The position numbers were made by a program, and so were the translations under genes. The notes beneath the pieces are model-generated. The model was given only the letters and a program-made list of their open reading frames with translations. It did no database searches and had not been told where the DNA came from. This document shows positions 25,821 to 44,557 of a stretch of 64,000 nucleotides of DNA, one piece after another. The stretch is from an uncultured virus (IMG/VR IMGVR_UViG_2597490189_000005) (lineage: Duplodnaviria > Heunggongvirae > Uroviricota > Caudoviricetes): IMG/VR virus record IMGVR_UViG_2597490189_000005; one strand, 5' to 3'. Numbering within the stretch: position 1 is the first letter of the stretch; each line of letters opens with the position of its first letter.

Positions 25821-25993
25821 TTGAATTAAATTTGTTACTTTTGTTCTAAAGTTCTTTGGTAACAAACAATAGAAACAAAAAAAATCACGCTGACGGGGTG
25901 AATTACCGCTGTTTATAAGGCTTTTGAGACCTTTGGGATAAATACTACTCTGAAGTTTTGGGGTTGTCAAATAAAATAATGTAGTTTTTACTA

Positions 25994-26022
25994 TTGCAAT
26001 TAAATATAGTTTAAACTATAAT
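25994..26022 (+). promoter_or_regulatory. Module 1 promoter with palindromic operator
   Basis: TTGCAA-17-TATAAT, palindrome tatagtttaaactata at 26005-26020. Confidence 0.75.
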
Positions 26023-26046
26023 AACTTTGTTTTTAGCAAGGGCTAG

Positions 26047-26203
26047 AAATGAAGAAACCGCCCTTCTGGTGAGCGGTCTCAAAAAAGGAGCTAGGATATG
26101 CCTTGGAAGCTAATCATCCTAGTTATCTTGTTGGTGGTAAGCAATTACGCTTACTAGTTAATAGATAACCCTGCGGGGGATATGTGAGAGTGTCCCCCAA
26201 CGG
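26047..26203 (-). ncRNA. Sib-like antisense RNA 1
   Basis: TTGATT-17-TATATT (26237-26209), ggggga/tccccc hairpin, terminator gaccgctc...gggcggtttcttcattt. Spans the toxin ORF. Confidence 0.72.
26098..26157 (+). CDS. ibs: Ibs-like type I toxin 1 (MPWKLIILVILLVVSNYAY)
   Basis: 19-aa hydrophobic peptide ending in AY, like E. coli Ibs. RBS AAGGAG. Confidence 0.85.
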   Translation: MPWKLIILVILLVVSNYAY

Positions 26204-26252
26204 CTCCTAATATAACAACTTCAGTTTTAAAAATCAACCAAAGGTAGCGAAA

Positions 26253-26438
26253 ATGGCACTAACAAAAAAAGAAATTCAAGAGAAAAGCGATAAAAAACGT
26301 GGGGTGCGTATGGTTGGCTTTAAACTCCACGAAGAAGTGATTGCTTTACTAACCGAACTCTCTGAACAATCGGGTCTGTCTAAAACGCAAATTGTTACTC
26401 AAGGTATTAAGCTGTTTGCAGAACAAAATAAGGCGTAG
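26253..26438 (+). CDS. Ribbon-helix-helix protein 1
   Basis: S..KRGV+..GFKL strand followed by two helices. Paralog of the 40855 and 43950 genes. Confidence 0.8.
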   Translation: MALTKKEIQEKSDKKRGVRMVGFKLHEEVIALLTELSEQSGLSKTQIVTQGIKLFAEQNKA

Positions 26439-26446
26439 CAATACGC

Positions 26447-26824
26447 CTAAAACTTCAGTCTAATCAACCCCGAACCAAATACCGCCCCTTCCATAAAATC
26501 TCGTGCGGTGCGTAAACGGTTATCAAATGTAGTCGGTGAAATCTGCATTTCAAGACAAATATTCTTCTTATCCTGCCCTTGTAAAAACACTGCCATTAGC
26601 ACCTGATAGGCTTCCAAATTCAAATCGTGTAATGTCATCACAGCTTCATCTAGCTTAAGATACTGTTCCTCTGACAGTTTATCAATACTATACTTTGTAA
26701 TTTGAGCAGTTGCCTCACGCATAAAAGATTGTAATGATGGATAACCACGACACCCACGATGAGAAGCCCAACGACGAACCCAAACGAGTAGAATATCGTC
26801 AATGCTGATATGTAATCTAATCAT
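26447..26824 (-). CDS. Late antiterminator Q
   Basis: Lambda Q-like C-terminal HTH, follows ninG. Confidence 0.8.
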   Translation of the reverse strand: MIRLHISIDDILLVWVRRWASHRGCRGYPSLQSFMREATAQITKYSIDKLSEEQYLKLDEAVMTLHDLNLEAYQVLMAVFLQGQDKKNICLEMQISPTTFDNRLRTARDFMEGAVFGSGLIRLKF

Positions 26825-27390
26825 TTCAACTCCTTAATCTTCGCCTTATACGTTTGAATAATTTCCTTACAATCCTCAACCGACCACTTCACAGGAGGGT
26901 GATAGCTTTCCAATGCTTCTACTCGCTCTGCCCCGATTTTACGTACAAGGTTGATACGGTATTCTGTAATGTTTCCGCTCAAATGATTGTTACAAGCACT
27001 ACATTGTTTATGAACATTGTCCTCATTAAATCTCAGCTCTGGCATCGCTTTTACCGTGCGATAATGCCCAGCGTGATACTGCCCTTGATGAAAACGCTGG
27101 CACGAAATACAAGGCTCATCTTTATCTCGTAAACGAATGTATTCATTAAAAACAGCCTGAGCGTCTTTAAGCCATTCAGAACGAGATTTTAAGCGTTCTC
27201 TCGTTGCTTTAATCTTTGCCCTTTCTTCTCGATTTCGCTTTTCTATGGCTTTCTGACGTGCTTTCTCTTGGGCTATTTTGGCAAGTTTCACACCACATTC
27301 AGCACTACACCATTTTCTAAAGCTATCCGCAGACTTAAACTCACCACCACAGCATTTGCATTTACGCTTTTTCACTTTCGGCTTTATCAT
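26821..27390 (-). CDS. ninG: NinG/Rap endonuclease
   Basis: YIRLRD...CISC, HAGHY, NVHKQC..CN. Confidence 0.93.
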   Translation of the reverse strand: MIKPKVKKRKCKCCGGEFKSADSFRKWCSAECGVKLAKIAQEKARQKAIEKRNREERAKIKATRERLKSRSEWLKDAQAVFNEYIRLRDKDEPCISCQRFHQGQYHAGHYRTVKAMPELRFNEDNVHKQCSACNNHLSGNITEYRINLVRKIGAERVEALESYHPPVKWSVEDCKEIIQTYKAKIKELK

Positions 27391-27541
27391 TAAATGCCTC
27401 CAATTCTTCCTCACTCCACCGCTTAGTGCACTTCAAGCCAGTACATTCAAACGGTTTTACCTTATCAATCTCTGACTTTTCAGAAAACCTACGCCAGTCT
27501 TTAAGAATTGATTGGCAGTTTGGGCAGAAGTAACTACTCAT
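27362..27541 (-). CDS. Small Cys-rich protein (59 aa, not in track)
   Basis: MSSYFCPNC...ECTGLKC, overlaps flanking genes. Confidence 0.6.
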   Translation of the reverse strand: MSSYFCPNCQSILKDWRRFSEKSEIDKVKPFECTGLKCTKRWSEEELEAFNDKAESEKA

Positions 27542-27905
27542 TGTGTTTACCTGTTTTCTTGTTGTTCTTTACAGTTCTACAGCCAGCATAAGCAAGAGTT
27601 GATATAAAACCGACCGTAGCTAATACTGGATACCCAAAATAAACCAAGACCAAGCTAATAGTTAACTCACTTATAATCATTTGCTTGGCTCTGTTTTCCG
27701 TGAACAAAAACTTAGTGGGCTTAATAAACGCAGACATTAAAGTTAAAATAGAAAATGCCCAGAAAGCCCAAATATAAACATTTACTGCGCCATCCGTGAG
27801 ATACAAGTGCGAATAAACAAAGCCACCAACAATAGCTAAATCCGCAATTAATTTTCCAAAAGAAAAAGATTTAATTTCCATCATTTCACCCCCCAAAAAT
27901 TCCAT
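27534..27905 (-). CDS. Hypothetical membrane protein
   Basis: Several hydrophobic segments. Confidence 0.65.
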   Translation of the reverse strand: MEFLGGEMMEIKSFSFGKLIADLAIVGGFVYSHLYLTDGAVNVYIWAFWAFSILTLMSAFIKPTKFLFTENRAKQMIISELTISLVLVYFGYPVLATVGFISTLAYAGCRTVKNNKKTGKHNE

Positions 27906-28339
27906 CTGTCATTAAAATGCACCCCATTAGAAACACCCCACGAAGTTGCATATTCGATTAAACTTGCCATTCGTTTTACGCTCATTTGAGCCGTACTCTC
28001 ACGAATATTCACTAATTCGCCTTCCAATCCTGTGACCAAAAAAGAGCCTTCTTTCGTTGCTTCAGCGTGGGCAGAAATTAAAATGACCTTCCACGTTTCA
28101 GGCGGTAGCCATTCGCCGTTAAATTGCACCTGTCTGGCAATATCGCCACACATTGCGTGGAATTTGGCATTTTGCTCAAGGTTACGAGTAATAGGCTTCA
28201 CATCAATCACTAACGGCTTTTTCTCATCTATCGGCAACGCTTTCACAAATTCAAGGGCATTGTTTTTGATTTGCTCAGTGCGTAGAAAGTATTTTTGCTT
28301 ATGCTCCATACCTACCAACCTTTGTTCCATACCTACCAA
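27881..28339 (-). CDS. ninB: NinB/Orf recombination protein
   Basis: RNLEQNAKFHAM..DIA.Q and STAQMS. Confidence 0.9.
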   Translation of the reverse strand: MVGMEQRLVGMEHKQKYFLRTEQIKNNALEFVKALPIDEKKPLVIDVKPITRNLEQNAKFHAMCGDIARQVQFNGEWLPPETWKVILISAHAEATKEGSFLVTGLEGELVNIRESTAQMSVKRMASLIEYATSWGVSNGVHFNDRWNFWGVK

Positions 28340-28344
28340 CCTCC

Positions 28345-28548
28345 TTACTTCTTAACCTGCTCTTTCGTAAAATACCCACAAGACTTCGTTCTGTTCATCG
28401 CACAATCCTTGCTGATGTTGGGGAATCGCCCTGTGTAATGACCGTTACAGCGATAAGGCTCTTCAACGTGCCAGCCCCAATCATCGTTAATGCTTAAATC
28501 TTCTAGATCTCCGCCACATTTGGGGCATTTGTAATCACTCATACCCAC
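28345..28548 (-). CDS. Small Zn-finger-like protein
   Basis: CPKCGG plus further Cys. Confidence 0.6.
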   Translation of the reverse strand: MGMSDYKCPKCGGDLEDLSINDDWGWHVEEPYRCNGHYTGRFPNISKDCAMNRTKSCGYFTKEQVKK

Positions 28549-28564
28549 CTACATCAAAACTCAC

Positions 28565-29236
28565 CTAAAACCCCCTAACCTGTTTCAACAAACCACCCCA
28601 GAAAGCCCTCACCTTTTCACGATCGACTGCTTTCACTTCTTGAGGTAATGCCAGCTTTGGTTCTGGTAAAACCTCCCTTGTTTTTAACCGCTTGCTCATT
28701 TTGACGAGGGATTTTTTAATCTCATCTTTGAGTTGCTTATCGCTCCATTCACCAGTCCGACAACGCACATACAAATCGGTAATCAAGTAATACTCCGCCG
28801 TAGAAACAAACTTAAACTTCTGGATTTCTTCCATACCAAATGCCATAAACGCTTGTAACCGCTTGTAAAGTTTATCCTCATCAGGCAAACCTAACGCTTC
28901 ATAGTCCACCGCTTTACACCACTCCACAAACTCGCCTACGCTTGGCCAGAATGGATTTTTAGATTTTTTCGCTCGCTCAATCCCGTTTTGCAGTTGCTCA
29001 ATCGTCGTAATTTTTTCGTTCACCAACGTTTCAAGCCAAATCCGCTTTGCTTCACGGTAACTGTCTGCATCAGGAAATGAATTCTTCCACGCAGGAAAAA
29101 TCGCCCGAAGCTGAATGAATAATTGATTAACGGTTCTAATCGCACCGTCAGGAATTGCCGTTGCCTTTGCTGGCACTTGGTAATTTGGCTCTTGCCCGAC
29201 AAGGCTTTTCAAGTTCATTGATGCCACGTTTTGCAT
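28565..29236 (-). CDS. Replication protein P-like
   Basis: LF.QL.AIFPAW and PFWPS.GEFV.WC. Confidence 0.85.
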   Translation of the reverse strand: MQNVASMNLKSLVGQEPNYQVPAKATAIPDGAIRTVNQLFIQLRAIFPAWKNSFPDADSYREAKRIWLETLVNEKITTIEQLQNGIERAKKSKNPFWPSVGEFVEWCKAVDYEALGLPDEDKLYKRLQAFMAFGMEEIQKFKFVSTAEYYLITDLYVRCRTGEWSDKQLKDEIKKSLVKMSKRLKTREVLPEPKLALPQEVKAVDREKVRAFWGGLLKQVRGF

Positions 29237-30066
29237 TAACTTCCCCTTAGCGTGATAGACATACCTTCCGCCCAGTTGCCTTCGTCATCAGGGATAAACG
29301 GCTTGGAAGTATTACGAGCGGACGGATTTTGTGGATTTTTTGCAGAAACTCCGTCATTTTGCCAATCCCAACCAGCATTGAACCCACGCCAACCACGCTC
29401 AATCGAAATCGCAATAGCTTGTTGAATAGGAATTTTGGCTTTATCCGCCTCACGCTGAAAACCTTTCAACGCAGTTTCGGTGATCGGAGCTTTGAAAGAT
29501 TTCCGATGAACGATGAAATCTTTTGCCAGTTGTTCGGTAATCCCAAACTTTTCCAACAAAATCAAATCTGCGGATTTTTTCTCGCGCGCGTTTATACTTC
29601 CCGTCAGGGAAGTATTATTGTTAGTATTCTCTGAAGTATTCTCTGTATTAACGAATGGCGGTTTTGCTTCTTCCCGAATGTCGCTTTCCGCCATTGGGGA
29701 ATGTTCATTAGTGACATTGGGTAATGGCGGTTTTGCTTCTTCCCGAATGTCGTCCATTAATGCATCAAATTTAACTAAATCCAGTTTGAAATAAATGCGG
29801 TGCTCTAAGCGTTTGTGAGTTTCAACCAATATGCCTAGCTCAACTAATTTTTTGCGAGCCGTTTCTTGCTCACGGCGACTTAATCCCGTTTCCTGCTCAA
29901 GCTCAGCTTGTGTTTTATATACGCCTAATGGGTTTGAGGTCTTATCCTGCCAAAAGAATAATTGCCCAAATAAAATTGCCGCTGTCACACCGCCTAACGG
30001 TTTTGCTAATTGTGGATAGTACGCAATAGGCTGTCCCAGTTGGCGTAATTTTTGGCTAAAACTCAT
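29236..30066 (-). CDS. Replication initiator (O-like)
   Basis: N-terminal wHTH, internal iteron-like repeat, upstream of P. Confidence 0.85.
   Translation of the reverse strand: MSFSQKLRQLGQPIAYYPQLAKPLGGVTAAILFGQLFFWQDKTSNPLGVYKTQAELEQETGLSRREQETARKKLVELGILVETHKRLEHRIYFKLDLVKFDALMDDIREEAKPPLPNVTNEHSPMAESDIREEAKPPFVNTENTSENTNNNTSLTGSINAREKKSADLILLEKFGITEQLAKDFIVHRKSFKAPITETALKGFQREADKAKIPIQQAIAISIERGWRGFNAGWDWQNDGVSAKNPQNPSARNTSKPFIPDDEGNWAEGMSITLRGS
29654..29752. repeat. Two 30-bp direct repeats inside the initiator gene (probable origin iterons)
   Basis: aatggcggttttgcttcttcccgaatgtcg at about 29654 and 29723. Confidence 0.75.
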
Positions 30067-30794
30067 AATCCCACCACCTTATCTTGTGTAAATACGCCAT
30101 TCCAATTTGCTTTCATCGGTAATTCTCGCTTTGTGTACCACTCATAGAGCTTTGCAGCTCCTTTCTTGAGTAAAACAGGTTTATATGCCACAAACGGATC
30201 TTTTCCGTGTTGCGAAATCTCCGTCGTTTCTTCCGTCAAATACTGATCACGAGCGTACGACTTCACACGTTTATGATTACCATCTTGATAGAGCCAGTTT
30301 TTATCCACTAAAAACGCCCCAATTTTCAAAGCGTTCACTCCATTCAAGCCTTTGACAAACTCAAACGGTGAAATCCCATTACGGAAATAACTTTCCATTG
30401 AGGCAATTTGAAGGGATTTTTGCTCACTCTCTTCGATTTTATCGGCGAGTTGGCGTAATGCTTCTGAATAGCTAGGGAGTTGTTGCACTTGCTTTTGCTC
30501 TAACTCTTGCCAACGATCAACTAAACGAGCAGTAAATTCAGGAGAGAATTGAGCCACAATCACATAAGTATCACGTTTATTAATATGATACTCGTAATAG
30601 ACTTGCCCATTTTGCTCATGGGTGTACGGACTTTCCGCATACCCCCCAATTACCCCTTTATTCATCAGGTTTCTAATAGATAAGCACACATCACGGTGTC
30701 TGCTTTCTGTGATTCGTGCAATCTCCCGACTACTCATCGTTAGGGTTGCATTTTCTCTCTGATTAGTAGATAATAACTCTGTTTTCATAAACAT
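30063..30794 (-). CDS. Rha-family regulator with antirepressor-type C-terminus
   Basis: MSSREIA...H..V and FTARLVDRWQELE. Confidence 0.85.
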   Translation of the reverse strand: MFMKTELLSTNQRENATLTMSSREIARITESRHRDVCLSIRNLMNKGVIGGYAESPYTHEQNGQVYYEYHINKRDTYVIVAQFSPEFTARLVDRWQELEQKQVQQLPSYSEALRQLADKIEESEQKSLQIASMESYFRNGISPFEFVKGLNGVNALKIGAFLVDKNWLYQDGNHKRVKSYARDQYLTEETTEISQHGKDPFVAYKPVLLKKGAAKLYEWYTKRELPMKANWNGVFTQDKVVGL

Positions 30795-30832
30795 TATCTC
30801 CCTTTGATATACCCACGTTCCAGCGTGGGTTT

Positions 30833-31108
30833 TTATTTTCCAATAGCATGAACGCCCTTCTCTGCAAATAGCTTGAGGGCATCCAGTTCACTGTCTGTCA
30901 AACGATTTAAACCTTTCTCTGATACTTCCAATTCTAAAAAATCAAGGTAAGCACAGAATTTGTCTAAATGTTCTGCCTTAAAACGACAAATCGTTGATGC
31001 ATCTACACCAACATATTCTGCCGCTTGAGCATCTTTCGTCTATGATGCCTTCTGTCTGATTAAGTCCGCATTCTTCATTGCAGACTTGCTTAATTCATTG
31101 CGTGCCAT
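30833..31108 (-). pseudogene. cII: CII-like activator with internal TAG (31040-31042)
   Basis: MARNELSKSAMKNADLIRQKAS*TKDAQAAEYVGVDASTICRFK... The HTH resembles CII and the gene lies directly after cro. Confidence 0.75.
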
Positions 31109-31128
31109 TGCACACTCCTTTGGGTAAA

Positions 31129-31335
31129 TTAACTGCCAACAGGAAAAACGTCGTCTAAAGATGTTGTAGCACCAAATTTATTAAGAGCAGATACAATTCT
31201 TCTAGCATCAGCTAACGATGGAGTTCGATTACCAGTTTCATAGTTAGCTATTCTTGGTTGTCCAAATCCGAGTTGATCGGCTAATTGCTTTTGAGTAATA
31301 CCTACGCTTTCCCTTACTTTTGCAAGATTATTCAT
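31129..31335 (-). CDS. cro: Cro-like XRE repressor
   Basis: HTH, divergent from cI. Confidence 0.88.
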   Translation of the reverse strand: MNNLAKVRESVGITQKQLADQLGFGQPRIANYETGNRTPSLADARRIVSALNKFGATTSLDDVFPVGS

Positions 31336-31344
31336 AGTTATCCT

Positions 31345-31440
31345 TTTTTGTGATTAAGATAACGCACATTTAATCACATCAAGTGATTTATGTAAAACAC
31401 TTTTTGTGATTTTGATGATATTTCATTGCGTGATATTATT
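31345..31440. promoter_or_regulatory. OR operator region
   Basis: ATCAC-N5-GTGAT palindrome at about 31373 plus degenerate copies between cro and cI. Confidence 0.7.
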
Positions 31441-31467
31441 GTTTGGTTATAGGTTAAGGAGCGGTAT

Positions 31468-32124
31468 ATGAAAATAGGTGAGCGGATAAAAGCTTTTAGA
31501 GCCAAAACAGGAATGAACCAAAAGGATTTTGCAGAAGCTGTATCAAAAATTGATACAAGAGAGCGTTCTAAATGGGGGCAATCTAGAATTGCTAACTACG
31601 AAACAAATGTAAGAATGCCTGATCTTGATGATATTGAAGTGATAGCAAAAGTTATTGGTATAGATCCAGCAAAGCTTGCTTTTGGCGACCCGAATGTAGA
31701 GCCTGTAATAGTTAAGAATTCATACTCATACCCTTTAATTAGCTCAATTCAAGCTGGAGTATGGCCTGAAGTCTTTGACTATCGAGATACAGAAGGGTAC
31801 GACTATATCGACACGGAAATTGACGCAGGTCCAGATGCATTCTTCTTACGAGTGTCAGGAATGTCTATGGAGCCTAAATTCAGCGAAGGGGATTTAGTGT
31901 TGATTGATGTCAGAAAACGCCCACATCCTGGCGATTTTGTTGCAGCAGTAAATGGCAATGGCGAAGCGACCTTAAAACGTTATCGTGAACTTGGAGAGTT
32001 ATCACCATCAGGCAATCCACATTTTGAGCTAGTGCCATTAAATCAAGATTTCCCAACGCTTAGCTCAATGAAACAAGATATTCGTATTATAGGCGTAGCG
32101 GTTGAGCATAGGAGTTATTTGTAG
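31468..32124 (+). CDS. cI: CI repressor (HTH + S24 peptidase)
   Basis: QAG cleavage site, GMSM serine, TLKR lysine. Confidence 0.93.
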   Translation: MKIGERIKAFRAKTGMNQKDFAEAVSKIDTRERSKWGQSRIANYETNVRMPDLDDIEVIAKVIGIDPAKLAFGDPNVEPVIVKNSYSYPLISSIQAGVWPEVFDYRDTEGYDYIDTEIDAGPDAFFLRVSGMSMEPKFSEGDLVLIDVRKRPHPGDFVAAVNGNGEATLKRYRELGELSPSGNPHFELVPLNQDFPTLSSMKQDIRIIGVAVEHRSYL

Positions 32125-32187
32125 AGCCACGTTGAATCTTGTTGGGAAATAGTAGTAAATTTATTGTAAAAATACAAAGGAAATAAC

Positions 32188-32601
32188 ATGAGAAAAATCA
32201 AACTACCAAATTCAGATCTTGCAGACACATTTAGGAAAGAAGAAACTTCTGCATTAAAAGCAGCAAAAAATATGCTCTTACAAGAGCAAAAAGGAGACTT
32301 TGATAAAGATAAATTGATTGATGAAATTATTATGGGAAGGAATCCACTTTTAACTGCGGATAATATAGCCTCTCGTCTAGGTATTCCTATAGAAGTTTTT
32401 CATCAATGGGTAAAAAATGCAGACCCCAAATATCAAATCCCTACAAACTCACTATTTGGAGAGCTCGGCAGGGCAATGTTTAACTCATCGTTAGAACGAA
32501 CTGAACATTACAAATTTGCTAAACCTGATGTCTATATAGGTAGTTACCCTCGATGGACAACTGAAACATTGAGATCATGGTTACGAGCTAATTTAAAATG
32601 A
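32188..32601 (+). CDS. Hypothetical protein downstream of cI
   Basis: RBS, HTH-like segment. Confidence 0.65.
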   Translation: MRKIKLPNSDLADTFRKEETSALKAAKNMLLQEQKGDFDKDKLIDEIIMGRNPLLTADNIASRLGIPIEVFHQWVKNADPKYQIPTNSLFGELGRAMFNSSLERTEHYKFAKPDVYIGSYPRWTTETLRSWLRANLK

Positions 32602-32685
32602 AAAAGGCAGGATAGAAATCCTGCCTTATAGGTTATCGAAGGTACGTAAGCTTTACCCTACGCCCACCGGGCAACTTGCCAGATG
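32600..32685 (-). ncRNA. Candidate small RNA
   Basis: TTGACA(32719-14)-17-TAATCT, then about 85 nt ending in hairpin aaggcagga/tcctgcctt plus T run. Confidence 0.5.
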
Positions 32686-32735
32686 TAGCTAGATTAATAA
32701 AGTATTCCGCTATTGTCAATAATTTTTTAGAAGAT

Positions 32736-33191
32736 ATGTCAGTATTACAACATTTTAATGCAATATCGAAAAGCCGATTAGCGCCCTACAGTGCTCTATG
32801 TAAAAATGCGTACCCAGGTGAATTACAATTCTCTCTGTCTAAACGCACTATTTGCATATATACAGCCTTGCAACATCGTGCATCTATTTTTTCTTCACTT
32901 ATCCAAGAAATTGAAATTAGTGTAAGAAATGAAATGACACAAATAATAAAACAAAATCTTACGCAGAATAATGACTTATTAAGTCATTTCTGTTTTCTTG
33001 CCATTGATAAGACAACAAAGTTATCTCCATATAGTCAAAATGAATTAAAAAGTTGCCTAATCAAACTACTAAATAACACTCTTCCACCCAATTATTCGGT
33101 ACAGCATCTCAATAACACAAACTACGCTTACCAAAGGCTTATACAACAAAAAATTCCCGACAAGAAGCATTATTCTTCCGCATATTCCTGA
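32736..33191 (+). pseudogene. Abi_2/AbiF-like N-terminal fragment
   Basis: IS.SRL.PY and LIQEIEISVRN motifs. 3' end runs into kinase-like DNA. Confidence 0.5.
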
Positions 33192-33477
33192 GCCATTGAT
33201 GAAAATTGTTTGCCAATGTTTAGAAGTCGATGTTGAAAAAAGATACAATAATGTGAGAGATATTCTTAACGATTTAAGTAAAATTGATTACAATGGCTTA
33301 GATTGGCAGTGTACAGAAAGTGACACTTCGCACGAATGGAACTTTACTGACGAAAAAGGTCTAACTTATCAAGTTACTCGCCAAAAAGGCGAAAAGGCAT
33401 ATACTGTGGTTAAGAATAATCGCAAAACCACACCAAAATCTGACACTCTACGAGATTATTTACTGACACTCAAATGA
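33130..33477 (+). pseudogene. Ser/Thr kinase C-terminal fragment
   Basis: LPHIPEPLMKIVCQCLEVDVEKRYNNVRDILNDL resembles subdomain XI. Confidence 0.55.
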
Positions 33478-36914: not shown

Positions 36915-36964
36915 AACCCTACTAAGGTTGATCGAAAGACTAACTGAAAATCAAGGGGCATAAA

Positions 36965-37564: not shown

Positions 37565-37644
37565 CCACAACCCAACCCCACCGCACTTTCCCCGAAAGCC
37601 TGCGGTGGCTTCCTACACCCAAAATTCAACAAAAGGAATAAAAA

Positions 37645-37965
37645 ATGAAGACACTTATCAAAAAACTCAACCTGAAATACCTACTCGGTGCCTTGCTTAT
37701 CGCCTTTGTGACAGGCGGAAGTTTAACTGGCTGTGAAGAGCCTGAGCTTGTCTCTACTCTCCCCGTAGAAAGCAATTTCCAAGCAGAGAAGATTTGGACG
37801 GAAGATGACTTCAAACAAGCTGAAATCACCCCTGAAGAGGTAAATTACAACGCATTAGCCCTACATCTTCCACCGCCTGATAACGTTACAGGTGAAGATG
37901 TGAAGCTGATTAAACAACATAACCAAAACCAACTTAACAAACTGATTGTAGGAGCAAAAAGATGA
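37645..37965 (+). CDS. Putative lipoprotein
   Basis: Hydrophobic N-terminus and LTG-C. Confidence 0.55.
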   Translation: MKTLIKKLNLKYLLGALLIAFVTGGSLTGCEEPELVSTLPVESNFQAEKIWTEDDFKQAEITPEEVNYNALALHLPPPDNVTGEDVKLIKQHNQNQLNKLIVGAKR

Positions 37966-38501
37966 TCAAACTTCAAATTTTACAAAACCCAAATAAAAAA
38001 TACTTCGGTGAAATGTGGGTGGATAAACATCTAGTGTTTCAAGGCATACCAATGACATCGGAAATTATTGCTATCCGAAATTTAAACAAAGCCATTGATA
38101 GATATAACAGTCAAAAAGGCTTAGTCGGTAAAAGAGCTATCCCTCACTACCCTGAAATCGAAGGGCATAATCCGATTGTAATTGAGCAAGCTAAAAAAGT
38201 TGGGCTAAAAGTAACAGTTATCCAAGCAGAGCAGGTTGAGCAAATAGCACCGACGGAACAAGTTGAGATTGAAACAGCACCAACAGAACAAGTTGAGCCG
38301 AAGCCGAAGCCATCACAGCCCAAACGCAAACCATTTACCCCTTACGGCTTAAAAGGCTATCTGGTAGATAAAAACGGCAATGTCCGCCTAATGCTAGACA
38401 GAAGAGCCAACGCCAACACGATTGTACTTGAACCGCAGATGTTCGGAGCATTAGCGGAAATGGTGAAGAAAACTCAGGAGCAACAAAATGCGAGTACCTG
38501 A
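37962..38501 (+). CDS. Hypothetical protein
   Basis: Coupled ORF in the early operon. Confidence 0.65.
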   Translation: MIKLQILQNPNKKYFGEMWVDKHLVFQGIPMTSEIIAIRNLNKAIDRYNSQKGLVGKRAIPHYPEIEGHNPIVIEQAKKVGLKVTVIQAEQVEQIAPTEQVEIETAPTEQVEPKPKPSQPKRKPFTPYGLKGYLVDKNGNVRLMLDRRANANTIVLEPQMFGALAEMVKKTQEQQNAST

Positions 38502-38694
38502 CCCAATGCGATACGAAACCAAAGATGATTACTACGACGCACTAGAAAAGTTTGAAGCACATCAACAAGCGAAATATAACGATGAAGTCGTCCCTGATGA
38601 ATGGGACGAGTTTTGCGAAGAAGTTCTCATCTGCAATCCAAGAGAGCGAGATTACCAAGACCAAACTTGGCTATTTGGGAGAAAAGACGTATGA
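38488..38694 (+). CDS. Small acidic hypothetical protein
   Basis: RBS, precedes recT. Confidence 0.6.
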   Translation: MRVPDPMRYETKDDYYDALEKFEAHQQAKYNDEVVPDEWDEFCEEVLICNPRERDYQDQTWLFGRKDV

Positions 38695-39608
38695 CCACAC
38701 AAACCACACCAGCAACTCAAAACAAAGAAAACAAATTCCCGATTAAGACTTTATTTGAAAGCCCAAACGTACAGCAAAAATTACAAGCATTGCTTAACAA
38801 AAACGCTGCGACATTTACCACCAGCGTTCTGCAAATCGTCAATAGCAACGCAATGCTTCGCAATGCCGATCCAATGAGTGTATTTAATGCGGCGTGTATG
38901 GCAGCAACGCTCAATCTACCGCTACAAAATGGCTTAGGTTTTGCATACATTGTGCCGTATCAAAATCGAAAAGAGAAAAAGACGGAAGCCCAGTTCCAAC
39001 TCGGCTATAAAGGCTTAATTCAACTGGCACAACGGTCAGGGCAATTTAAACGCCTTGTTGCAGTGCCAGTTTACGAGAAACAACTGATTGCTGAAGACCC
39101 AATAAACGGTTTTGAATTTGACTGGAAACAAAAGCCAGCCAAAGATGAAAAACCAATCGGCTACTATGCTTATTTCAAGTTGATCAACGAATTTACTGCC
39201 GAACTCTATATGAGTACCCAAGACGTGTACGACCACGCCGCACGCTACTCACAAACCTATAAAAAAGGTTATGGCGTATGGCACGACAACTTTGAGGCGA
39301 TGGCAATCAAAACGGTTCTTAAGTTGCTACTCTCTAAACAAGCCCCACTTTCCGTAGAAATGCAACAAGCGGTACTGGCAGATCAAGCGGTTGTCAAAGA
39401 TGTAGAAAACGCAGAATTTTCTTACCCTGATAATGAAGTTCAAGAAGCTGAATTTACCGAATTAAAAGTCAATGATGACGTGTTTGAAAAATGTAAGCAA
39501 AACATCATCAGCGGTGATGCCACTTTGCAAGACTTATGCGATAACGGCTATGAATTCAGCAAAGAGCAGTATGCGATTTTAGAAGAGCTCGAAAATAAAA
39601 GGGAATGA
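38691..39608 (+). CDS. recT: RecT/Redbeta-family recombinase
   Basis: LG.AYIVPY, AQFQLGYKGLIQLAQRSGQ, MA.KTV. Confidence 0.92.
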   Translation: MTTQTTPATQNKENKFPIKTLFESPNVQQKLQALLNKNAATFTTSVLQIVNSNAMLRNADPMSVFNAACMAATLNLPLQNGLGFAYIVPYQNRKEKKTEAQFQLGYKGLIQLAQRSGQFKRLVAVPVYEKQLIAEDPINGFEFDWKQKPAKDEKPIGYYAYFKLINEFTAELYMSTQDVYDHAARYSQTYKKGYGVWHDNFEAMAIKTVLKLLLSKQAPLSVEMQQAVLADQAVVKDVENAEFSYPDNEVQEAEFTELKVNDDVFEKCKQNIISGDATLQDLCDNGYEFSKEQYAILEELENKRE

Positions 39609-39661
39609 TTGACACCCATCAAATTAAGTTTAATCCACCATCATCACCCAAAGGAAACACA

Positions 39662-40330
39662 ATGGAAAAAATGTATAACCTAAAAGTCCGTTGCTCTCAA
39701 CTTCACCAACTAATGAGCGAGCCACGCTCAAAAGCAGATAAAGATGCGGGCAAAATTTCCGATACTGCCAAAAATGCGGTGCGAGAGATTGCAAAGTTTG
39801 ACTTGTTCGGCTACCAATCCTTTGACGGCAACAAGTACACCGAAAAAGGTAATCAGCTTGAAGAGCAAGCCATCAAATTAAGTGGCTTTACTCGTGGATT
39901 GGTTCTTAAAAAGAACACAGAACGCAGAGAAAACGCCTTCATCACGGGCGAATGTGATATTTACGTTCCATCACGCAAGCTCATTATTGATACAAAATGC
40001 TCGTGGGACATTGGCTCTCACCCCTTTTTCCAAGACGAAGCCGAAGAAAAAGCCAAAAAAGCAGGTTATGACTACCAAATGCAAGGCTATATGTGGCTTT
40101 GGGATTGCGAAGAAGCACAAATCGACTTTGTACTCTTCCCCACTCCGCTTGATTTAATCTCAAGCTACGACAACGGCGAAAAGCTAATCGACCTAGTAGA
40201 GCAAATTCCACAATCCAAGCGAATTACCACCGTCACCATCAAGCGAGATGAAGAAGTGATTGCCAAAATCCAAGAAAGGCTCACCTCAGCACAAAATTAT
40301 TATCAACAAATCATTCAGGAGTATATGTAA
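39662..40330 (+). CDS. Phage exonuclease (YqaJ/lambda-exo-like PD-(D/E)XK)
   Basis: G..LE, GECD, IIDTKC, Y.YQ.QGYM. Confidence 0.8.
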
Positions 40331-40809
40331 TGGCAGGCGTGAATAAAGTAATCATAGTCGGCAATCTCGGCAATAACCCTGATATGCGTACAATGCCAAA
40401 CGGTGACCCCGTCGTTAAAATTAGTGTCGCCACATCGGAAGAATGGACCGACAAACAAACGGGCGAGAAAAAGCAAAATACCGAATGGCACAGCATTATC
40501 GCTTTTAGGAAATTAGCCGAAATTATGGGGCAATACCTAAAGAAAGGCTCTAAGGTTTACATTGAAGGGAAACTTCGTACCCGCAAATGGCAAGCGCAAG
40601 ACGGTACAGACCGCTACACCACCGAGATTATCGCCGACAAACTCGAAATGCTCAGTAGTTCGCAAGGTGGTAACAGTAACAACAACTGGGCACAAGAACC
40701 ACAGGGTAAGCCAAAACAGCAACAACAAACAAAACAGAAAGAATGGGACGGTTATGCTGATGATGAACGTCTGCCAGCAAATAACTTTGATGATGAAATA
40801 CTGTTTTGA
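40330..40809 (+). CDS. ssb: Single-stranded DNA-binding protein
   Basis: [14 protein letters not shown]..., acidic tail FDDEILF. Confidence 0.95.
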
Positions 40810-40854
40810 GTTTAATTAACGCCCTTAGTTTTGAGGGCGTTTTGATAAAGGGCA

Positions 40855-41043
40855 TTACGCCCCTTTCTGCGATTGCTTAAACAGCTCAACGGCTTGAATA
40901 ATCAACTGATTTTGTGGAATATTTAACTCTGTACTTAACTGCTCAATTTCAGCAATCACAACTAAAGGAAGTTTGAAGGCTTTGAGTTTAATACCGTGTT
41001 TTTCCTCACTGCGTTTAACAATTTCGGTTCTTGACATCGCCAT
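40855..41043 (-). CDS. Ribbon-helix-helix protein 2
   Basis: SEEKHGIKLKAFKL...IIQAVELF, paralog of 26253 and 43950. Confidence 0.8.
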   Translation of the reverse strand: MAMSRTEIVKRSEEKHGIKLKAFKLPLVVIAEIEQLSTELNIPQNQLIIQAVELFKQSQKGA

Positions 41044-41064
41044 AATAAATCCTTAACATTAGTT

Positions 41065-41225
41065 TTGAAGAACGAGAGAGATTTCTCCCTCTCGTTAAAT
41101 TATCATCAAATTAGTAAGCTGGCGAGCTAAGTACTAACAAGATGATAACTAGGATAATGTATTTAAACATTTGATTATCCTCTTCAAAGTTGGGTAGATT
41201 AAAGGTCAGACCCAGCTCGTTTTCA
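41065..41225 (+). ncRNA. Sib-like antisense RNA 2
   Basis: TTGACA(41031)-17-TAACAT, aacgagagag/ctccctctcgtt hairpin, terminator-like gttgggt/acccagc plus tcgtttt. Confidence 0.7.
41111..41170 (-). CDS. ibs: Ibs-like type I toxin 2 (MFKYIILVIILLVLSSPAY)
   Basis: 19 aa ending in S.PAY like Ibs, RBS GAGGA. Confidence 0.88.
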   Translation of the reverse strand: MFKYIILVIILLVLSSPAY

Positions 41226-41248
41226 GCATTATTACTGAAAACAAAGTT

Positions 41249-41277
41249 ATTATAAGTTAGTTATCTAACTAAATCAA
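41249..41277 (-). promoter_or_regulatory. Module 2 promoter with palindromic operator
   Basis: TTGATT-17-TATAAT, spacer holds agttag-N4-ctaact. Confidence 0.75.
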
Positions 41278-41389
41278 GCATTATTTCACTAAGCCATCGT
41301 TTTTACGGTGGCTTTTTTATTGCAACATTTTCACGAAAACCAACCGCTTGTAGCAATACAGGCGGTTTTTTATTGCAAGGAAATTAAAA

Positions 41390-42109
41390 ATGACAGAACA
41401 AACTACACAAAAGAAATACGAACTACTCAAAGATGACACAGTAGAACATTTAGGCAGAACGCTCTATCGAATTAAAGCACTTATTACATTTGGTTTAGTT
41501 GGAGCAGGCCAATTAGGCGGTTATATCGAAACCGAAAAGAATTTAGATCATAGCGGTAATGCTTGGGTGTACGATAATGCTCGGGTGTGCGGTGACGCTT
41601 GCGTGTACGGTAACGCTGGGGTGTACGATAATGCTTGGGTGTACGGTAATGCTCGGGTGTACGGTAATGCTCGGGTGTACGGTAAGGCTTGGGTGTTCGG
41701 TAACGCTTGCGTGTACGGTAACGCTGGGGTGTACGGTAAGGCTTGGGTGTTCGGTAACGCTTGGGTGTTCGGTGATGCTCGGGTGTACGGTGACGCTTGC
41801 GTGTACGGTAACGCTGGGGTGTGCGGTGATGCTCGGGTGTACGATATCGCTCGGGTGTTCGGTGATGCTCGGGTGAGATCTTTTGCAGTTATCTCTGAAC
41901 GCAAAATGATTTTTTGGGCAAGTAATGTAGGCTCAGAAAATGGAACGCTTACGGTCTTTAATGGAAAATTTGGGTTAATTGTTACTCGTGGTTGCTTTAC
42001 AGGCACGGTGGACGAGTTTTTATCAAAATCAAAAGAAGTCCACGATGACAAGACCCATCACGAATACAAACTACTGATTGAAGTTGCTCAAAGTAGAATT
42101 CTTAACTAA
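41390..42109 (+). CDS. Hexapeptide-repeat (left-handed beta-helix-like) protein
   Basis: About 18 GNA.VY-type units encoded by 18-bp repeats at 41555-41876. Confidence 0.85.
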   Translation: MTEQTTQKKYELLKDDTVEHLGRTLYRIKALITFGLVGAGQLGGYIETEKNLDHSGNAWVYDNARVCGDACVYGNAGVYDNAWVYGNARVYGNARVYGKAWVFGNACVYGNAGVYGKAWVFGNAWVFGDARVYGDACVYGNAGVCGDARVYDIARVFGDARVRSFAVISERKMIFWASNVGSENGTLTVFNGKFGLIVTRGCFTGTVDEFLSKSKEVHDDKTHHEYKLLIEVAQSRILN

Positions 42110-42145
42110 CTCGCTATCTAGGTGAGTTTTTTTATGGAGTTAATA

Positions 42146-42928
42146 ATGACAGAAAATATTGAGCCTTATTTGCAACCACAAAAAAGACAAATTATCGCAG
42201 ATAAAGACAAAGAACAGCAGTTGCTTAAAATGGCAAAAGAACATTATACGTCCTATGCGGATGTAGCGAAATTTGCTGACGCCTTAAATCTGCGGGCAGG
42301 TATCGTTTACCTTACATTAAAGTATCACGGTTTTGTTAAACAAACGGAAACAACACAATATCGCGTCTTGGATAGTTATTATCGACACAATGGCGACCTT
42401 AAAGAAATCACAAAAGATGTTGGTTTGACCGTGTGGATTGTGGCAAAAACCCTTGAACAGTTAAATTTATCCCCAAACTGGGCGAGTTATAAAGAGCGAG
42501 CAGAAACTGGTTTAAAAGGAGATTGGGCGGAGAATGAATTTAAACGTTTAGTCCCTTCTGCTATTGATATGAATATGCAGTATCAAATGAATAATCCTCG
42601 TTTTGATTTTGTTGTAAACAACAAAGAGATTGACGTGAAGTATTCTTCGGTTAGGAAAGTTAGAGGCTCGAATCAATATGCTTTAAGGTACGATCCTGAT
42701 AACTTACCGGATTTCTTTTGCCTTTTTGCTTCAGATGATGAAGTTGAAAAAAGTGATGGCCCACCGAGTGGCTATCGTATTCTCCTACTCCCTAGAGAGA
42801 TATTGCCTAAAAATAAAACCCAAGTAAACATCAATTCAGATCCCGACAACAAAAGAGCCTCAAGCACAATGTATTGGGATTTTGCAGTAGAGCCTGCGGC
42901 ACTATCTGCGCTTTTGGAGAATATCTAA
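42146..42928 (+). CDS. HTH + putative PD-(D/E)XK nuclease
   Basis: E..F, FDF, IDVKYS. Confidence 0.5.
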   Translation: MTENIEPYLQPQKRQIIADKDKEQQLLKMAKEHYTSYADVAKFADALNLRAGIVYLTLKYHGFVKQTETTQYRVLDSYYRHNGDLKEITKDVGLTVWIVAKTLEQLNLSPNWASYKERAETGLKGDWAENEFKRLVPSAIDMNMQYQMNNPRFDFVVNNKEIDVKYSSVRKVRGSNQYALRYDPDNLPDFFCLFASDDEVEKSDGPPSGYRILLLPREILPKNKTQVNINSDPDNKRASSTMYWDFAVEPAALSALLENI

Positions 42929-42929
42929 T

Positions 42930-43574
42930 GTGAATGAGTTGCTTTCTCTTATCCAAACAATGGGGCGTAAACATGACAATTTAAGAGTGTTTCAAGACTT
43001 TGTTGAAATCTGTGCTTGTGCCATTAGCAAACCCTTTCAAGATCGTGATGAAAGATACTTCTCCATTAAATCACGCTACACCGATGATGAGATGTATCAA
43101 TTTCATCAGCTGGGACAAATTCTTCTTAATCTTTTAGAAGAAGAACCTCAAGATGTGTTAGGCCAATGCTATATGAAGCTACAAATTGCCAACAAACAAC
43201 GTGGACAATGTTTCACACCTCTTTCTACGGGTCAAGTGATGGCAAATATGCTTATTGCCCCAAGCGAAATAGACGAGAAAGGCTATTTCACGCTGAACGA
43301 GCCCACTTGCGGAAGCGGTGCATTAATTATCAGCTTTTGCGAAACATTAAAATCACAAGGCTATAATCCGCAGCAACAATTACTCGTTATTGCGCAAGAT
43401 ATCGACTTAAAAAGTGTTCAGATGTGCTATGTGCAACTTTCACTCTTGGGTATATCCGCCATCATTCAACACGCAAATCCTATTGCAAATAACGTAATAG
43501 ATACCTACTACACCCCACTCTATTTATTACAAAGGAACCGTTATGAAAACCCTCAATCCTTTCAAACTGCGTAA
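42930..43574 (+). CDS. N6-adenine methyltransferase-like protein
   Basis: GQCFTP, EPTCGSG, QDID. No NPP(Y/F) motif seen. Confidence 0.7.
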   Translation: MNELLSLIQTMGRKHDNLRVFQDFVEICACAISKPFQDRDERYFSIKSRYTDDEMYQFHQLGQILLNLLEEEPQDVLGQCYMKLQIANKQRGQCFTPLSTGQVMANMLIAPSEIDEKGYFTLNEPTCGSGALIISFCETLKSQGYNPQQQLLVIAQDIDLKSVQMCYVQLSLLGISAIIQHANPIANNVIDTYYTPLYLLQRNRYENPQSFQTA

Positions 43575-43806
43575 GCAGTTAAACTATTATATGACACTCT
43601 GCTCACGGCAAGCCCTTGCCGTTATTCGAGCAAACGAACACATTTCAGAACTTGTCGCACAGAATTTCAAACAACAGCAAGAACTCGAACAACTCAAGGC
43701 TAAAGCAGAAAGCCTAGTCAAAGTATTAGAGTTTGAGAAATTTAACGTCCGCCGCTACGAAGAAATCGAAAAAGTCGTAACACACGGGCAGGGGTTTAAT
43801 TTTTAA
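43543..43806 (+). CDS. Coiled-coil hypothetical protein
   Basis: RBS AAGGA. Confidence 0.6.
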   Translation: MKTLNPFKLRKQLNYYMTLCSRQALAVIRANEHISELVAQNFKQQQELEQLKAKAESLVKVLEFEKFNVRRYEEIEKVVTHGQGFNF

Positions 43807-43949
43807 TGGGGACTAGGCAGATGAGCTGGTTGATTTCATTAACGTGTTTATGCTTAATTCTCAGCATCATCAACCTGAAATTAAGTGTAGTCAAACAAAA
43901 ACTAGGGAAAACTCTATTTTGGATGGCGCTAATGAAAGAATAAAGGGCA

Positions 43950-44168
43950 TTACGCCCCTTTCTGATTAAATAACTCAACCGCTTGCACAATCACCTGTGT
44001 TTGTGAAATACCGTGTTGCTCGGCAAGGCGTTCAATAAGCTCTATCGTTTCTTGATGAAGTTTAAAGCCTTTGAGCTTAACCCCACGCTTAGCTTCGCTT
44101 CTTGCTTGCAGTTCCTGAAGAGTTAAACCAGATTTTGGGCGACCACGAGAGCGTTTTTCAGTTTGCAT
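43950..44168 (-). CDS. Ribbon-helix-helix protein 3 (RGRP N-terminal extension)
   Basis: SEAKRGVKLKGFKL...VIVQAVELFNQKGA. Confidence 0.8.
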   Translation of the reverse strand: MQTEKRSRGRPKSGLTLQELQARSEAKRGVKLKGFKLHQETIELIERLAEQHGISQTQVIVQAVELFNQKGA

Positions 44169-44214
44169 AGAAATTCCTTGTTGATCTTTTAAGCCAAAAG
44201 GCTTATAGTTGGAG

Positions 44215-44375
44215 CCGTCAGGGGGACATCCGACCTTCCCCCTTCAGGAGTTACCTTAAACTACCGTACCTGAACAACAGGTGAGTAATACTACGGTAAC
44301 TAGGATTAGAACTCTGAAAATCTTCATATCCTAGCTCCATTTAGTGGCCCAGTGAAAGCTGGGCTTCTTATTTTC
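44215..44375 (+). ncRNA. Sib-like antisense RNA 3
   Basis: TTGATC(44181)-17-TATAGT, ggggga/tccccc hairpin, terminator gcccag-tgaaag-ctgggc-ttcttatttt. Confidence 0.72.
44256..44327 (-). CDS. Divergent Ibs-like peptide 3 (MKIFRVLILVTVVLLTCCSGTVV)
   Basis: Same ggagctaggatatg start context as module 1, shared atcctagtta core. Confidence 0.7.
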   Translation of the reverse strand: MKIFRVLILVTVVLLTCCSGTVV

Positions 44376-44398
44376 AGAACCATTCCGAAAACAAGCAT

Positions 44399-44427
44399 AT
44401 TTTAGGTTAAACCAAATAAATAATCAA
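44399..44427 (-). promoter_or_regulatory. Module 3 promoter with operator-like repeats
   Basis: TTGATT-17-TAAAAT, aggttaaac at about 44404 and 44438. Confidence 0.7.
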
Positions 44428-44557
44428 GATATTTTTAAGGTTAAACTAAAATAATTAATGTTTTTGTATTTGACACCCACCGCCCTTTCAGTTTAACATT
44501 ATCTCAATCTAAGCCGTCTAACACGGCTTTTTTTGTATCCAAAATTTGAGGTGCGGT

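Follow-up and report, generated by a model that had tools for sequence, protein, structure and literature searches.

The 64,000-nucleotide stretch of an uncultured virus of the Caudoviricetes analysed here (IMG/VR record IMGVR_UViG_2597490189_000005; the whole stretch is referred to as the window) carries three paralogous cassettes with an identical order of parts, that is, a sigma70-like promoter whose spacer holds a dyad or repeat, an open reading frame (ORF) for a hydrophobic peptide of 19-23 amino acids (hereafter the mini-ORF), a predicted convergent antisense promoter and a gene of 61-72 amino acids that belongs to the PHROG family phrog_3887 and whose product is predicted to be a ribbon-helix-helix (RHH) protein. 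We consider it fairly probable that each cassette holds a toxin and antisense RNA pair of the Ibs/Sib type, a type I toxin-antitoxin (TA) system, and that an RHH protein made from the same transcript represses the promoter of the pair; toxicity, the shared transcript and binding of the protein are what we infer from the arrangement of the parts. Ibs homologues were already known in Pasteurellales; what is new here is the linkage to an RHH gene, which makes the cassette a variant of Ibs/Sib and not a separate kind of system.

The anatomy of the cassette is real and conserved. The preliminary description of the window, drawn from its letters, had proposed five elements at each of three sites (a promoter with a palindrome, a 5' hairpin, a hydrophobic ORF, a second hairpin and an RHH gene), and reading, alignment and promoter scanning recovered all of them in all three copies, with a mean column identity of 69% over the following aligned stretches.

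25980-26448, plus strand: cassette copy 1
41277-40819, minus strand: cassette copy 2
44447-43942, minus strand: cassette copy 3

The same layout recurs in phages and bacterial genomes. A phrog_3887 match (E <= 0.001) is present in 108 of 236 Pasteurellaceae genomes, with approximately 90 strong matches (a match at this level was also registered in the E. coli control genome), and 17 phage records hold a relative of the RHH gene; the closest public phage records for this gene are Mannheimia and Moraxella phages, from which we take the host to be Pasteurellaceae-like. In all five distinct phage loci examined (a Mannheimia P2-like phage, two Mannheimia siphoviruses and two Moraxella phages), a mini-ORF lies 61-106 nucleotides (nt) upstream of the RHH gene, which is frameshifted in Mcat5. 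The linkage sample consisted of 30 Pasteurellaceae loci, the phage loci and the window, together 38 RHH genes, one of which is truncated by the end of its locus. As the preliminary description had anticipated in proposing that the RHH family and an upstream Ibs-like ORF occur together, a mini-ORF precedes every one of the 37 testable phrog_3887 genes, 36 being detected by script (at 59-111 nt) and one by eye (L013, in which an in-frame upstream ATG had lengthened the mini-ORF beyond the script's limit). Under a strict mini-ORF criterion, a same-strand upstream ORF was found at 34 of 37 distinct RHH loci and at 1/37, 1/37 and 0/37 control stretches, a recurrence that excludes a chance layout. 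The 37 loci do not represent independent events, as many are close relatives; the layout is kept despite RHH identity down to 34% and differing phage types. These observations support the view that the three-part layout is a conserved unit and not a coincidence.

A search in the reverse direction, with the Rfam model SIB_RNA (RF00113; gathering score 56 bits) against 151 Pasteurellaceae genomes, gave 91 matches of 25-55.6 bits, none of which reaches the gathering score. Among these Sib-like loci, 46 adjoin a strong opposite-strand phrog_3887 gene, 14 adjoin a gene of phrog_27481 and 31 adjoin neither, so that an RHH gene stands behind ibs at 60 of the 91. The family phrog_27481 is a second, unrelated RHH family (one of five members scores 24.9 bits with Pfam RHH_1, above the cut-off of 20.5), which has 29 strong matches in 23 of the 236 genomes and of which a gene of approximately 70 amino acids fills the RHH slot at 5 of 20 phrog_3887-unlinked Sib-like loci examined. 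The RHH-less group includes the top Sib matches (stand-alone, beside tRNA and from one genus), a tandem triple and two decayed loci. As 31 of 91 Sib-like loci have no RHH gene, the RHH protein is dispensable for Ibs/Sib as such, and it would be an added layer found on prophage-borne copies of the pair. The tandem triple (L042, G180:C5:2571-4994) contains three Ibs-like ORFs, all of which have a Sib-like match, and lacks an RHH gene; this recalls the tandem arrangement in E. coli. In the other two loci (L047 and L050), the frame behind ibs opens with LSINEI, like the RHH N-terminus, and then diverges, and a degenerate dyad (TTCGGTGTGTCGAA) is present; both look like decayed three-part cassettes.

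The closest genome in the collection (G001) has four strong phrog_3887 matches and one phrog_27481 match, and a class-wide sample of 400 genomes added only one further genome with a strong phrog_3887 match. In the family of that genome (f204, a second bacterial family), phrog_3887 is found in 4 of 23 genomes, at five loci, two of which have an Ibs-like ORF and a TAGG-ATAA-CCTA dyad. The co-occurrence anticipated in the preliminary description thus stands for the Pasteurellaceae and phage loci and falls short in f204, where two of the five loci lack a mini-ORF; it is also not exclusive to phrog_3887, as phrog_27481 can fill the same slot. At one locus of the second family (L056:1385-1441), the Ibs-like ORF has TGA at codon 3 (MI*YIIIILLLLLSAPAF) and the RHH gene is intact, with a longer C-terminus.

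Kinship with Ibs could be followed in the peptides themselves, which were compared with the Pfam family Ibs_toxin (PF13956, gathering cut-off 27 bits) after extension by one upstream codon to meet a 20-residue minimum.

26098-26157 including stop, plus strand: copy 1 Ibs-like ORF, 19 amino acids, MPWKLIILVILLVVSNYAY, Pfam Ibs_toxin 21.4 bits, E = 2.4e-4
41170-41111 including stop, minus strand: copy 2 Ibs-like ORF, 19 amino acids, MFKYIILVIILLVLSSPAY, Pfam Ibs_toxin 18.1 bits, E = 0.0027
44327-44256 including stop, minus strand: copy 3 hydrophobic ORF, 23 amino acids, MKIFRVLILVTVVLLTCCSGTVV, no Pfam match and not recognisably Ibs

Ibs_toxin is matched over its full length, though below the cut-off, by the copy 1 and copy 2 peptides (copy 2 over profile positions 1-19); the product of a stand-alone Pasteurellaceae ibs gene (L036) is likewise subthreshold, at 16.9 bits. 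Both window peptides end in AY, and near-identical peptides occur in stand-alone ibs/sib loci without an RHH gene (L045, L048 and L051). The residues I, L, V, F and M account for 10 of 10 positions of the peptide core in copies 1 and 2 and for 9 of 10 in copy 3, and a predicted antisense promoter lies opposite the hydrophobic peptide in all three copies. The copy 3 peptide resembles a lipoprotein signal peptide with an LLTC box, its sole hit being a chance-level NCBIfam lipoprotein match.

The opposite strand of each cassette carries the parts expected of a Sib-like RNA, as listed here from the promoter and terminator scans.

26237-26209, minus strand: copy 1 antisense promoter, TTGATT-17-TATATT
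26080-26054, minus strand: copy 1 antisense terminator, a GC hairpin that meets the terminator-scan criteria
approximately 26202 to 26045, minus strand: copy 1 predicted Sib-like antisense RNA (26045-26237 with its promoter)
26082-26237, minus strand: copy 1 Rfam SIB_RNA match, 28.3 bits, E = 0.0034, model positions 1-147
41031-41059, plus strand: copy 2 antisense promoter, TTGACA-17-TAACAT
41190-41216, plus strand: hairpin, followed by TCGTTTTC, at the copy 2 antisense end, unflagged by the terminator scan
start approximately 41066, end approximately 41225 or approximately 41256, plus strand: copy 2 predicted Sib-like antisense RNA (41031-41256 with its promoter)
41031-41187, plus strand: copy 2 Rfam SIB_RNA match, 37.2 bits, E = 7.5e-5, model positions 1-147
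44181-44209, plus strand: copy 3 antisense promoter, TTGATC-17-TATAGT
44346-44365, plus strand: copy 3 antisense terminator with a T-run, meeting the terminator-scan criteria
44181-44375, plus strand: copy 3 predicted antisense RNA, which aligns with the other copies

With a length of approximately 155-190 nt, the predicted antisense RNAs would span most of the 5' untranslated region (UTR) and all of the mini-ORF with its ribosome-binding site. A terminator upstream of the toxin had been proposed to bound an antisense RNA of approximately 160 nt; such a terminator is flagged in copies 1 and 3 and unflagged in copy 2, and the predicted lengths fall in the range above. The convergent promoter that had been placed at the RHH start is found in all three copies, at or just upstream of the RHH ribosome-binding site, with its -35 element overlapping the gene only in copy 2. 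In promoters of the copy 2 type, the -35 element lies on RHH codons 3-4 (TCA AGA, Ser-Arg) and the -10 element abuts the RHH Shine-Dalgarno sequence, so that the RHH start appears to be built into the antisense promoter. Of the phrog_3887 modules (40 distinct), 35 have a sigma70-like antisense promoter, often TTGACA-17-TATxAT; so do 7 of 12 modules with phrog_27481 and 14 of 17 without an RHH gene. A consensus from 23 antisense RNAs (RNAalifold) contains 20 pairs, 11 of which show compensatory changes, and the covarying pairs include the 3' terminal hairpin and a long-range helix; all 40 antisense sequences together gave no structure in RNAalifold, because that alignment mixes subtypes. Copy 3 has no Rfam SIB_RNA match on its antisense strand, and the identity with Ibs/Sib that had been claimed for all three copies is thus supported for copies 1 and 2, in which both peptide and RNA match subthreshold and full-length, and falls away for copy 3, which neither model recognizes. 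On this evidence, the peptides and predicted antisense RNAs of copies 1 and 2 are supported as relatives of Ibs and Sib. The window copies are only 51-53% identical over the antisense region, with longest common runs of 10-17 nt, which fits separate specificities and is no proof of them.

The third part of the cassette is the phrog_3887 gene, for which the PHROG annotation is 'transcriptional regulator'.

26253-26438, plus strand: copy 1 RHH gene, 61 amino acids, phrog_3887, E = 4.1e-28
41043-40855, minus strand: copy 2 RHH gene, 62 amino acids, phrog_3887, E = 8.5e-31
44168-43950, minus strand: copy 3 RHH gene, 72 amino acids, phrog_3887, E = 3.6e-30
26431-26448: hairpin 3' of the copy 1 RHH gene, scoring as a terminator on the minus strand alone (that is, for the convergent Q gene)
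40866-40847 and 40840-40819, minus strand: hairpins after the copy 2 RHH gene, neither flagged by the terminator scan
43960-43942, minus strand: terminator after the copy 3 RHH gene, meeting the scan criteria on the sense strand

The RHH proteins of copies 2 and 3 are 34-51% identical to that of copy 1. An AlphaFold2 model of the copy 2 protein (31 relatives; predicted local distance difference test score 88) has an N-terminal helix, an extended segment at residues 17-26 and helices at 27-40 and 44-60. The top Foldseek rows for this model are CopG (2cpg; template-modelling score 0.87, root-mean-square deviation 0.7 over 41 residues, E = 0.5) and other RHH proteins, with no row at E <= 0.001; in VIA-align, the top 50 are nearly all RHH proteins (Z 6.3-4.0), the Omega structures 1irq and 2bnw being among the matches. 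The RHH sequence profile also matches CopG (E = 9.3e-4). Pfam has no family for the copy 1 and copy 2 proteins and, for copy 3, only PSK_trans_fac at 17.4 bits, short of the cut-off of 28.3. On the strength of the modelled structure, supported also by the CopG profile match, we accept the RHH fold predicted for the phrog_3887 product, as the preliminary description had read it; its statement that the gene ends in a terminator applies to copy 3 alone, given the opposite-strand terminator of copy 1 and the unflagged hairpins of copy 2. The copy 1 gene (26253-26435, plus strand) has in addition a weak match to NCBIfam PRK11675, 'LexA regulated protein' (28.1 bits against a cut-off of 62).

If the RHH protein acts on the toxin promoter, an operator would be expected there, and the sense promoters and leaders of the three copies contain the following elements.

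25994-26022, plus strand: copy 1 sense promoter, TTGCAA-17-TATAAT
26005-26020, plus strand: copy 1 operator-like dyad TATAGTTTAAACTATA, a perfect 8+8 dyad equalled in 25 of 1000 shuffles
25980-25994, plus strand: copy 1 second similar repeat TGTAGTTTTTACTAT, from reading of the sequence
26028-26080, plus strand: copy 1 5' UTR, with a 5' hairpin at approximately 26030-26049 and a GC hairpin at 26054-26080
41277-41249, minus strand: copy 2 sense promoter, TTGATT-17-TATAAT
41270-41255, minus strand: copy 2 dyad AGTTAG-ATAA-CTAACT, with 7-bp arms, equalled in 38 of 1000 shuffles
41242-41219, minus strand: copy 2 5' UTR hairpin GTTTTCAG..CTGAAAAC, with helix covariation across 23 related RNAs
41216-41190, minus strand: copy 2 second 5' UTR hairpin, with helix covariation in the alignment of the same 23 RNAs
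44427-44399, minus strand: copy 3 sense promoter, TTGATT-17-TAAAAT
within 44413-44401, minus strand: copy 3 spacer dyad GGTTTAACC, from reading of the sequence
44447-44435 and 44413-44401, minus strand: copy 3 two GTTTAACCT repeats, from reading of the sequence

In copies 1 and 3, a further operator-like repeat thus lies over the -35 element or upstream of it; at the antisense promoter no second RHH operator was seen by eye in copies 1 and 2, an impression that is unquantified. In almost all RHH-linked modules a dyad lies between -35 and -10, and more than 15 distinct dyads occupy this same place in the spacer (including TTGGnTAnCCAA, TTAGTTAACTAA, TCGGTATACCGA, TAGGTTAACCTA, TTCGGTTAACCGAA and TGTAAGAccTCTTACA), varying and yet symmetric, as in TTGG-nTAn-CCAA, (A)TCGGTATACCGA(T), ATGTAGG-ATAC-CCTACAT, TGTAAGA-CC-TCTTACA and the copy 1 dyad. 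Such concerted change of both arms at a fixed place ahead of the transcription start is what selection by a dimeric DNA-binding protein would be expected to produce. A loose palindrome score did not separate RHH-linked from RHH-less promoters, since AT-rich -10 regions score by themselves, and was replaced by a strict criterion (perfect arms of 6 bp or more, separated by no more than 4 bp). Strict dyads are present in 16 of 36 distinct phrog_3887 promoters, 4 of 12 phrog_27481 promoters and 0 of 10 RHH-less promoters, and several RHH-linked promoters fail by one mismatch. Dyad type also tracks RHH type: four RHH proteins with KHGIKLKAFKL have TTAG..CTAA dyads, their nearest KRG relatives have TTGG..CCAA, and proteins with S/AYKL have CGGT..ACCG dyads. 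This co-variation is suggestive only, because operator and gene are inherited together. Further help comes from a comparison of two loci, L024 (1162-1722) and L064, whose ibs/sib cores are 93-100% identical over approximately 200 nt and whose operator and RHH sides are unrelated (phrog_3887 in the one, phrog_27481 in the other); as only the core is shared, the operator goes with the RHH gene and not with the toxin core, and the ibs/sib core behaves as an exchangeable cassette.

On these grounds, each copy can be envisioned as a self-contained cargo cassette of the prophage with three working parts. The sigma70 promoter would give an mRNA encoding the Ibs-like membrane peptide of 19-23 amino acids and, by read-through, the RHH protein, whereas the convergent promoter at the RHH ribosome-binding site or start would give the Sib-like antisense RNA of approximately 155-190 nt. 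This RNA would pair with the toxin mRNA and block its translation or destabilize it, as in E. coli, where, according to the T1TAdb paper (PMC8594479), the ibs mRNA fully overlaps Sib. An RHH dimer or tetramer would bind the dyad between -35 and -10 and repress its own operon, which would place synthesis of the toxin mRNA under negative feedback. As operator, RHH and RNA sequences differ between the copies, these probably work side by side with little cross-talk. Antisense control, insulation of the copies and a biological role in prophage maintenance or exclusion are, like toxicity, co-transcription and binding of the RHH protein to its operator, proposals that follow from this scheme. Co-transcription is consistent with the promoter scan, which found no usable sense promoter between mini-ORF and RHH gene in copies 1-3. 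Public RNA runs (4 of 24 compared) speak neither for nor against co-transcription or the antisense RNA: in one, an unstranded 439-nt contig (X9) corresponds exactly to 40829-41267 and bridges mini-ORF and RHH gene over the whole of copy 2; in a further run (X1), the summed contig depth, an unreliable measure of level, is 6284 over 40916-41549, compared with 72 and 28 in the flanking bins.

Several observations weigh against this interpretation. Every match to the Ibs and Sib models lies below the curated threshold and copy 3 matches neither, and the highest Sib scores (up to 55.6 bits) are found among the 31 Sib-like loci that lack an RHH gene altogether. Conversely, two of the five f204 RHH loci have no mini-ORF and one more has a stop at codon 3. 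Strict dyads occur in less than half of the RHH-linked promoters, and an RHH-less promoter (L053) has a 12-bp palindrome. The co-variation of operator and RHH protein is confounded by shared descent, and the residues of the RHH beta-strand are near-identical across dyad groups (IKLKAFKL occurs with both TTGG and TTAG). A T-rich stretch follows the hairpin that separates mini-ORF and RHH gene in copy 2 and its relatives, and the copy 2 hairpin (41093-41076, minus strand) is flagged as terminator-like on the sense strand; a large share of the toxin mRNA may therefore end ahead of the RHH gene, and the RHH protein may be made only from the read-through fraction. Finally, the RNA runs consist of assembled contigs without strand, ends or reliable level, in which DNA carry-over is possible.

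Some of these points would be accommodated if the RHH protein were an autoregulated phage repressor in its own right (of the Mnt, Arc or CopG type), which may control a neighbour such as a divergent antirepressor, with ibs/sib as a selfish insertion in its leader and with any role in toxin control limited to the shared promoter. We consider this unlikely, even though it would explain the f204 loci without a mini-ORF, one of which (L074) keeps a TTAGTTAACTA palindrome upstream of its RHH gene, as well as the movement of the ibs/sib core as a unit between the unrelated operator and RHH pairs of L024 and L064. It would also suit the toxin promoter of copy 1, which stands back to back with a TTGACA-17-TAGTAT promoter leading into the antirepressor gene ant, the divergent Ant/KilA-N-like genes at 6 of 25 distinct upstream neighbours (L018, L020, L024, L027, L031 and L059), the same divergent arrangement at a phage locus (L004), and the precedent of P22 immI, which unites RHH repressors, an antisense RNA and ant. 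Most modules, however, are not beside ant and instead adjoin integrase, portal, endolysin or unknown genes, many being bracketed by terminators; the mini-ORF is kept at all testable Pasteurellaceae and phage RHH genes; and two unrelated RHH families in the same slot behind ibs are hard to explain by chance insertion alone.

The mini-ORF could also be a leader peptide or upstream ORF that, together with the antisense RNA, only tunes RHH expression and is not a toxin. The constant position of the mini-ORF at 59-111 nt before the RHH gene, the subthreshold scores of all Ibs matches and the lack of Ibs features in copy 3 and in three variants (L032, L033 and L035) are in its favour, but the copy 1 and copy 2 peptides align end to end with the Ibs model, near-identical peptides are present in the RHH-less ibs/sib loci mentioned above, and the 59-111 nt gap with its intervening hairpin argues against translational coupling, which together make this decidedly improbable. 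Least of all do we expect that transcription of the toxin leaves out the RHH gene, which would then be silent or read from elsewhere and adjacent to the toxin only through shared descent of a prophage segment. The terminator-like hairpin of copy 2 and the many close relatives, which mean that the counts overstate independence, could be read in this way, but the linkage spans two bacterial families and unrelated phages (P2-like, lambdoid and Moraxella), the layout is kept at RHH identity as low as 34% and the scan of copies 1-3 found no promoter belonging to the RHH gene itself.

An Ibs/Sib-type pair under autorepression by an RHH protein from the same transcript would share features with several known systems and coincide with none of them. 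As in E. coli Ibs/Sib, the peptide is hydrophobic and approximately 19 amino acids long (with the AY end in copies 1 and 2), a cis-antisense RNA of approximately 150 nt (here predicted) fully overlaps it from a strong convergent promoter, and multiple diverged copies occur in one genome, copies 1 and 2 having subthreshold full-length matches to PF13956 and RF00113. In contrast to E. coli, a conserved RHH gene follows on the (predicted) toxin mRNA, the promoter dyad is operator-like, the cassettes are prophage cargo, the copy 3 peptide is different and the scores fall below the family thresholds. The omega-epsilon-zeta system is a three-component TA system in which the RHH protein Omega is a dedicated repressor, with a protein antitoxin (type II) and a kinase as toxin. 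The present cassettes similarly have a separate small RHH protein, distinct from the antitoxin, as proposed repressor of the toxin operon promoter, but their predicted antitoxin is an antisense RNA and their toxin a membrane peptide, and the RHH proteins share only the fold, without sequence kinship; as the cassettes contain no protein antitoxin gene, the likeness is an analogy of logic only. In P22 immI, the RHH repressors Arc and Mnt are found together with ant and with the sar antisense RNA, which targets ant. Small RHH proteins, dyads in back-to-back promoters beside an antirepressor and a short convergent antisense RNA are common to both, and copy 1 and L004 adjoin ant; P22, however, has no Ibs-like ORF, sar is not directed against a toxin and most of the cassettes here lie away from ant. 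In hok/mok/sok, mok is an overlapping leader ORF needed for translation of hok; the likeness is that this type I system, too, places more than two elements, coding or RNA, on transcripts that overlap, but mok does not encode a DNA-binding protein and there is no transcriptional feedback.

The genomic setting points to prophage cargo. The window from approximately 22 to 47 kb is a lambdoid prophage with genes for an endolysin, a P22-type antirepressor, a Q-like antiterminator, NinG, RecT, an exonuclease, SSB and a methylase. Copies 2 and 3 are oriented against the direction of the early-left operon, and just beyond copy 2 lie two strong plus-strand terminators (41291-41367), which would halt early-left transcripts running antisense through copy 2 unless these are antiterminated. 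On the far side of the copy 1 toxin promoter, and pointing away from it, lie the promoter and leader of ant: between that promoter (25970-25942, minus strand) and ant (25702-24854) there is an Rfam sRNA-Xcc1 match (25734-25819, minus strand; 77.3 bits against a gathering score of 53), which looks like the leader of the antirepressor mRNA, and a divergent 'ggcggttgtcaaataaaa' promoter, as found before the ant of copy 1, is also present upstream of many related cassettes. Across the related loci, the upstream neighbours with a PHROG match are nearly all prophage genes (for example, integrase or portal genes at the ends of P2-like prophages, divergent Ant/KilA-N-like genes, endolysin, phrog_9226 and DUF4760), and hairpin terminators bracket many modules.

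The preliminary description took the hybrid to be undescribed, and the literature agrees as far as it was covered: full-text searching, with one query poorly posed, found no paper on Ibs/Sib or another type I system with a co-encoded RHH protein or dedicated repressor, and a text search of a paper on A. pleuropneumoniae small RNAs (PMC4986893) gave no match to the topic. Ibs homologues in Pasteurellales (Haemophilus influenzae and H. somnus, with duplications) were reported by Fozo et al. in 2010 (PMC2887945), and the passages on these homologues mention no linked gene.

We tentatively raise the further possibility, which we regard as doubtful at present, that the cassettes form a distinct modular class of type I TA systems, in which a dedicated RHH protein closes a feedback loop around an RNA-controlled toxin. 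The RHH protein would be translated only from toxin mRNA that has escaped the antisense RNA and passed the internal hairpin, so that its level would report the escaping toxin mRNA and shut the promoter, and the operator and RHH pairs, with more than 15 dyad types and two RHH families, would by now represent many orthogonal specificities, between which the ibs/sib core would be exchangeable. If this is true, one prophage could carry three non-interfering copies, and a resident cassette might silence or exclude an incoming phage with the same operator type. To our knowledge, type I toxin promoters, where they are regulated at all, are controlled by host factors such as LexA; a dedicated repressor on the same transcript would add a new regulatory layer, combining RNA control of type I with autorepression in the style of type II. 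The natural operator and RHH variants at a fixed promoter position also provide a ready set for studies of DNA recognition by RHH proteins, and the swap of the ibs/sib core between unrelated operator and RHH pairs shows how such cassettes assemble. As approximately two-thirds of the Sib-like loci in the 151 Pasteurellaceae genomes are linked to an RHH gene and the neighbours examined are nearly all prophage genes, the arrangement bears on how the prophages of respiratory-tract bacteria may carry and tame toxic cargo.

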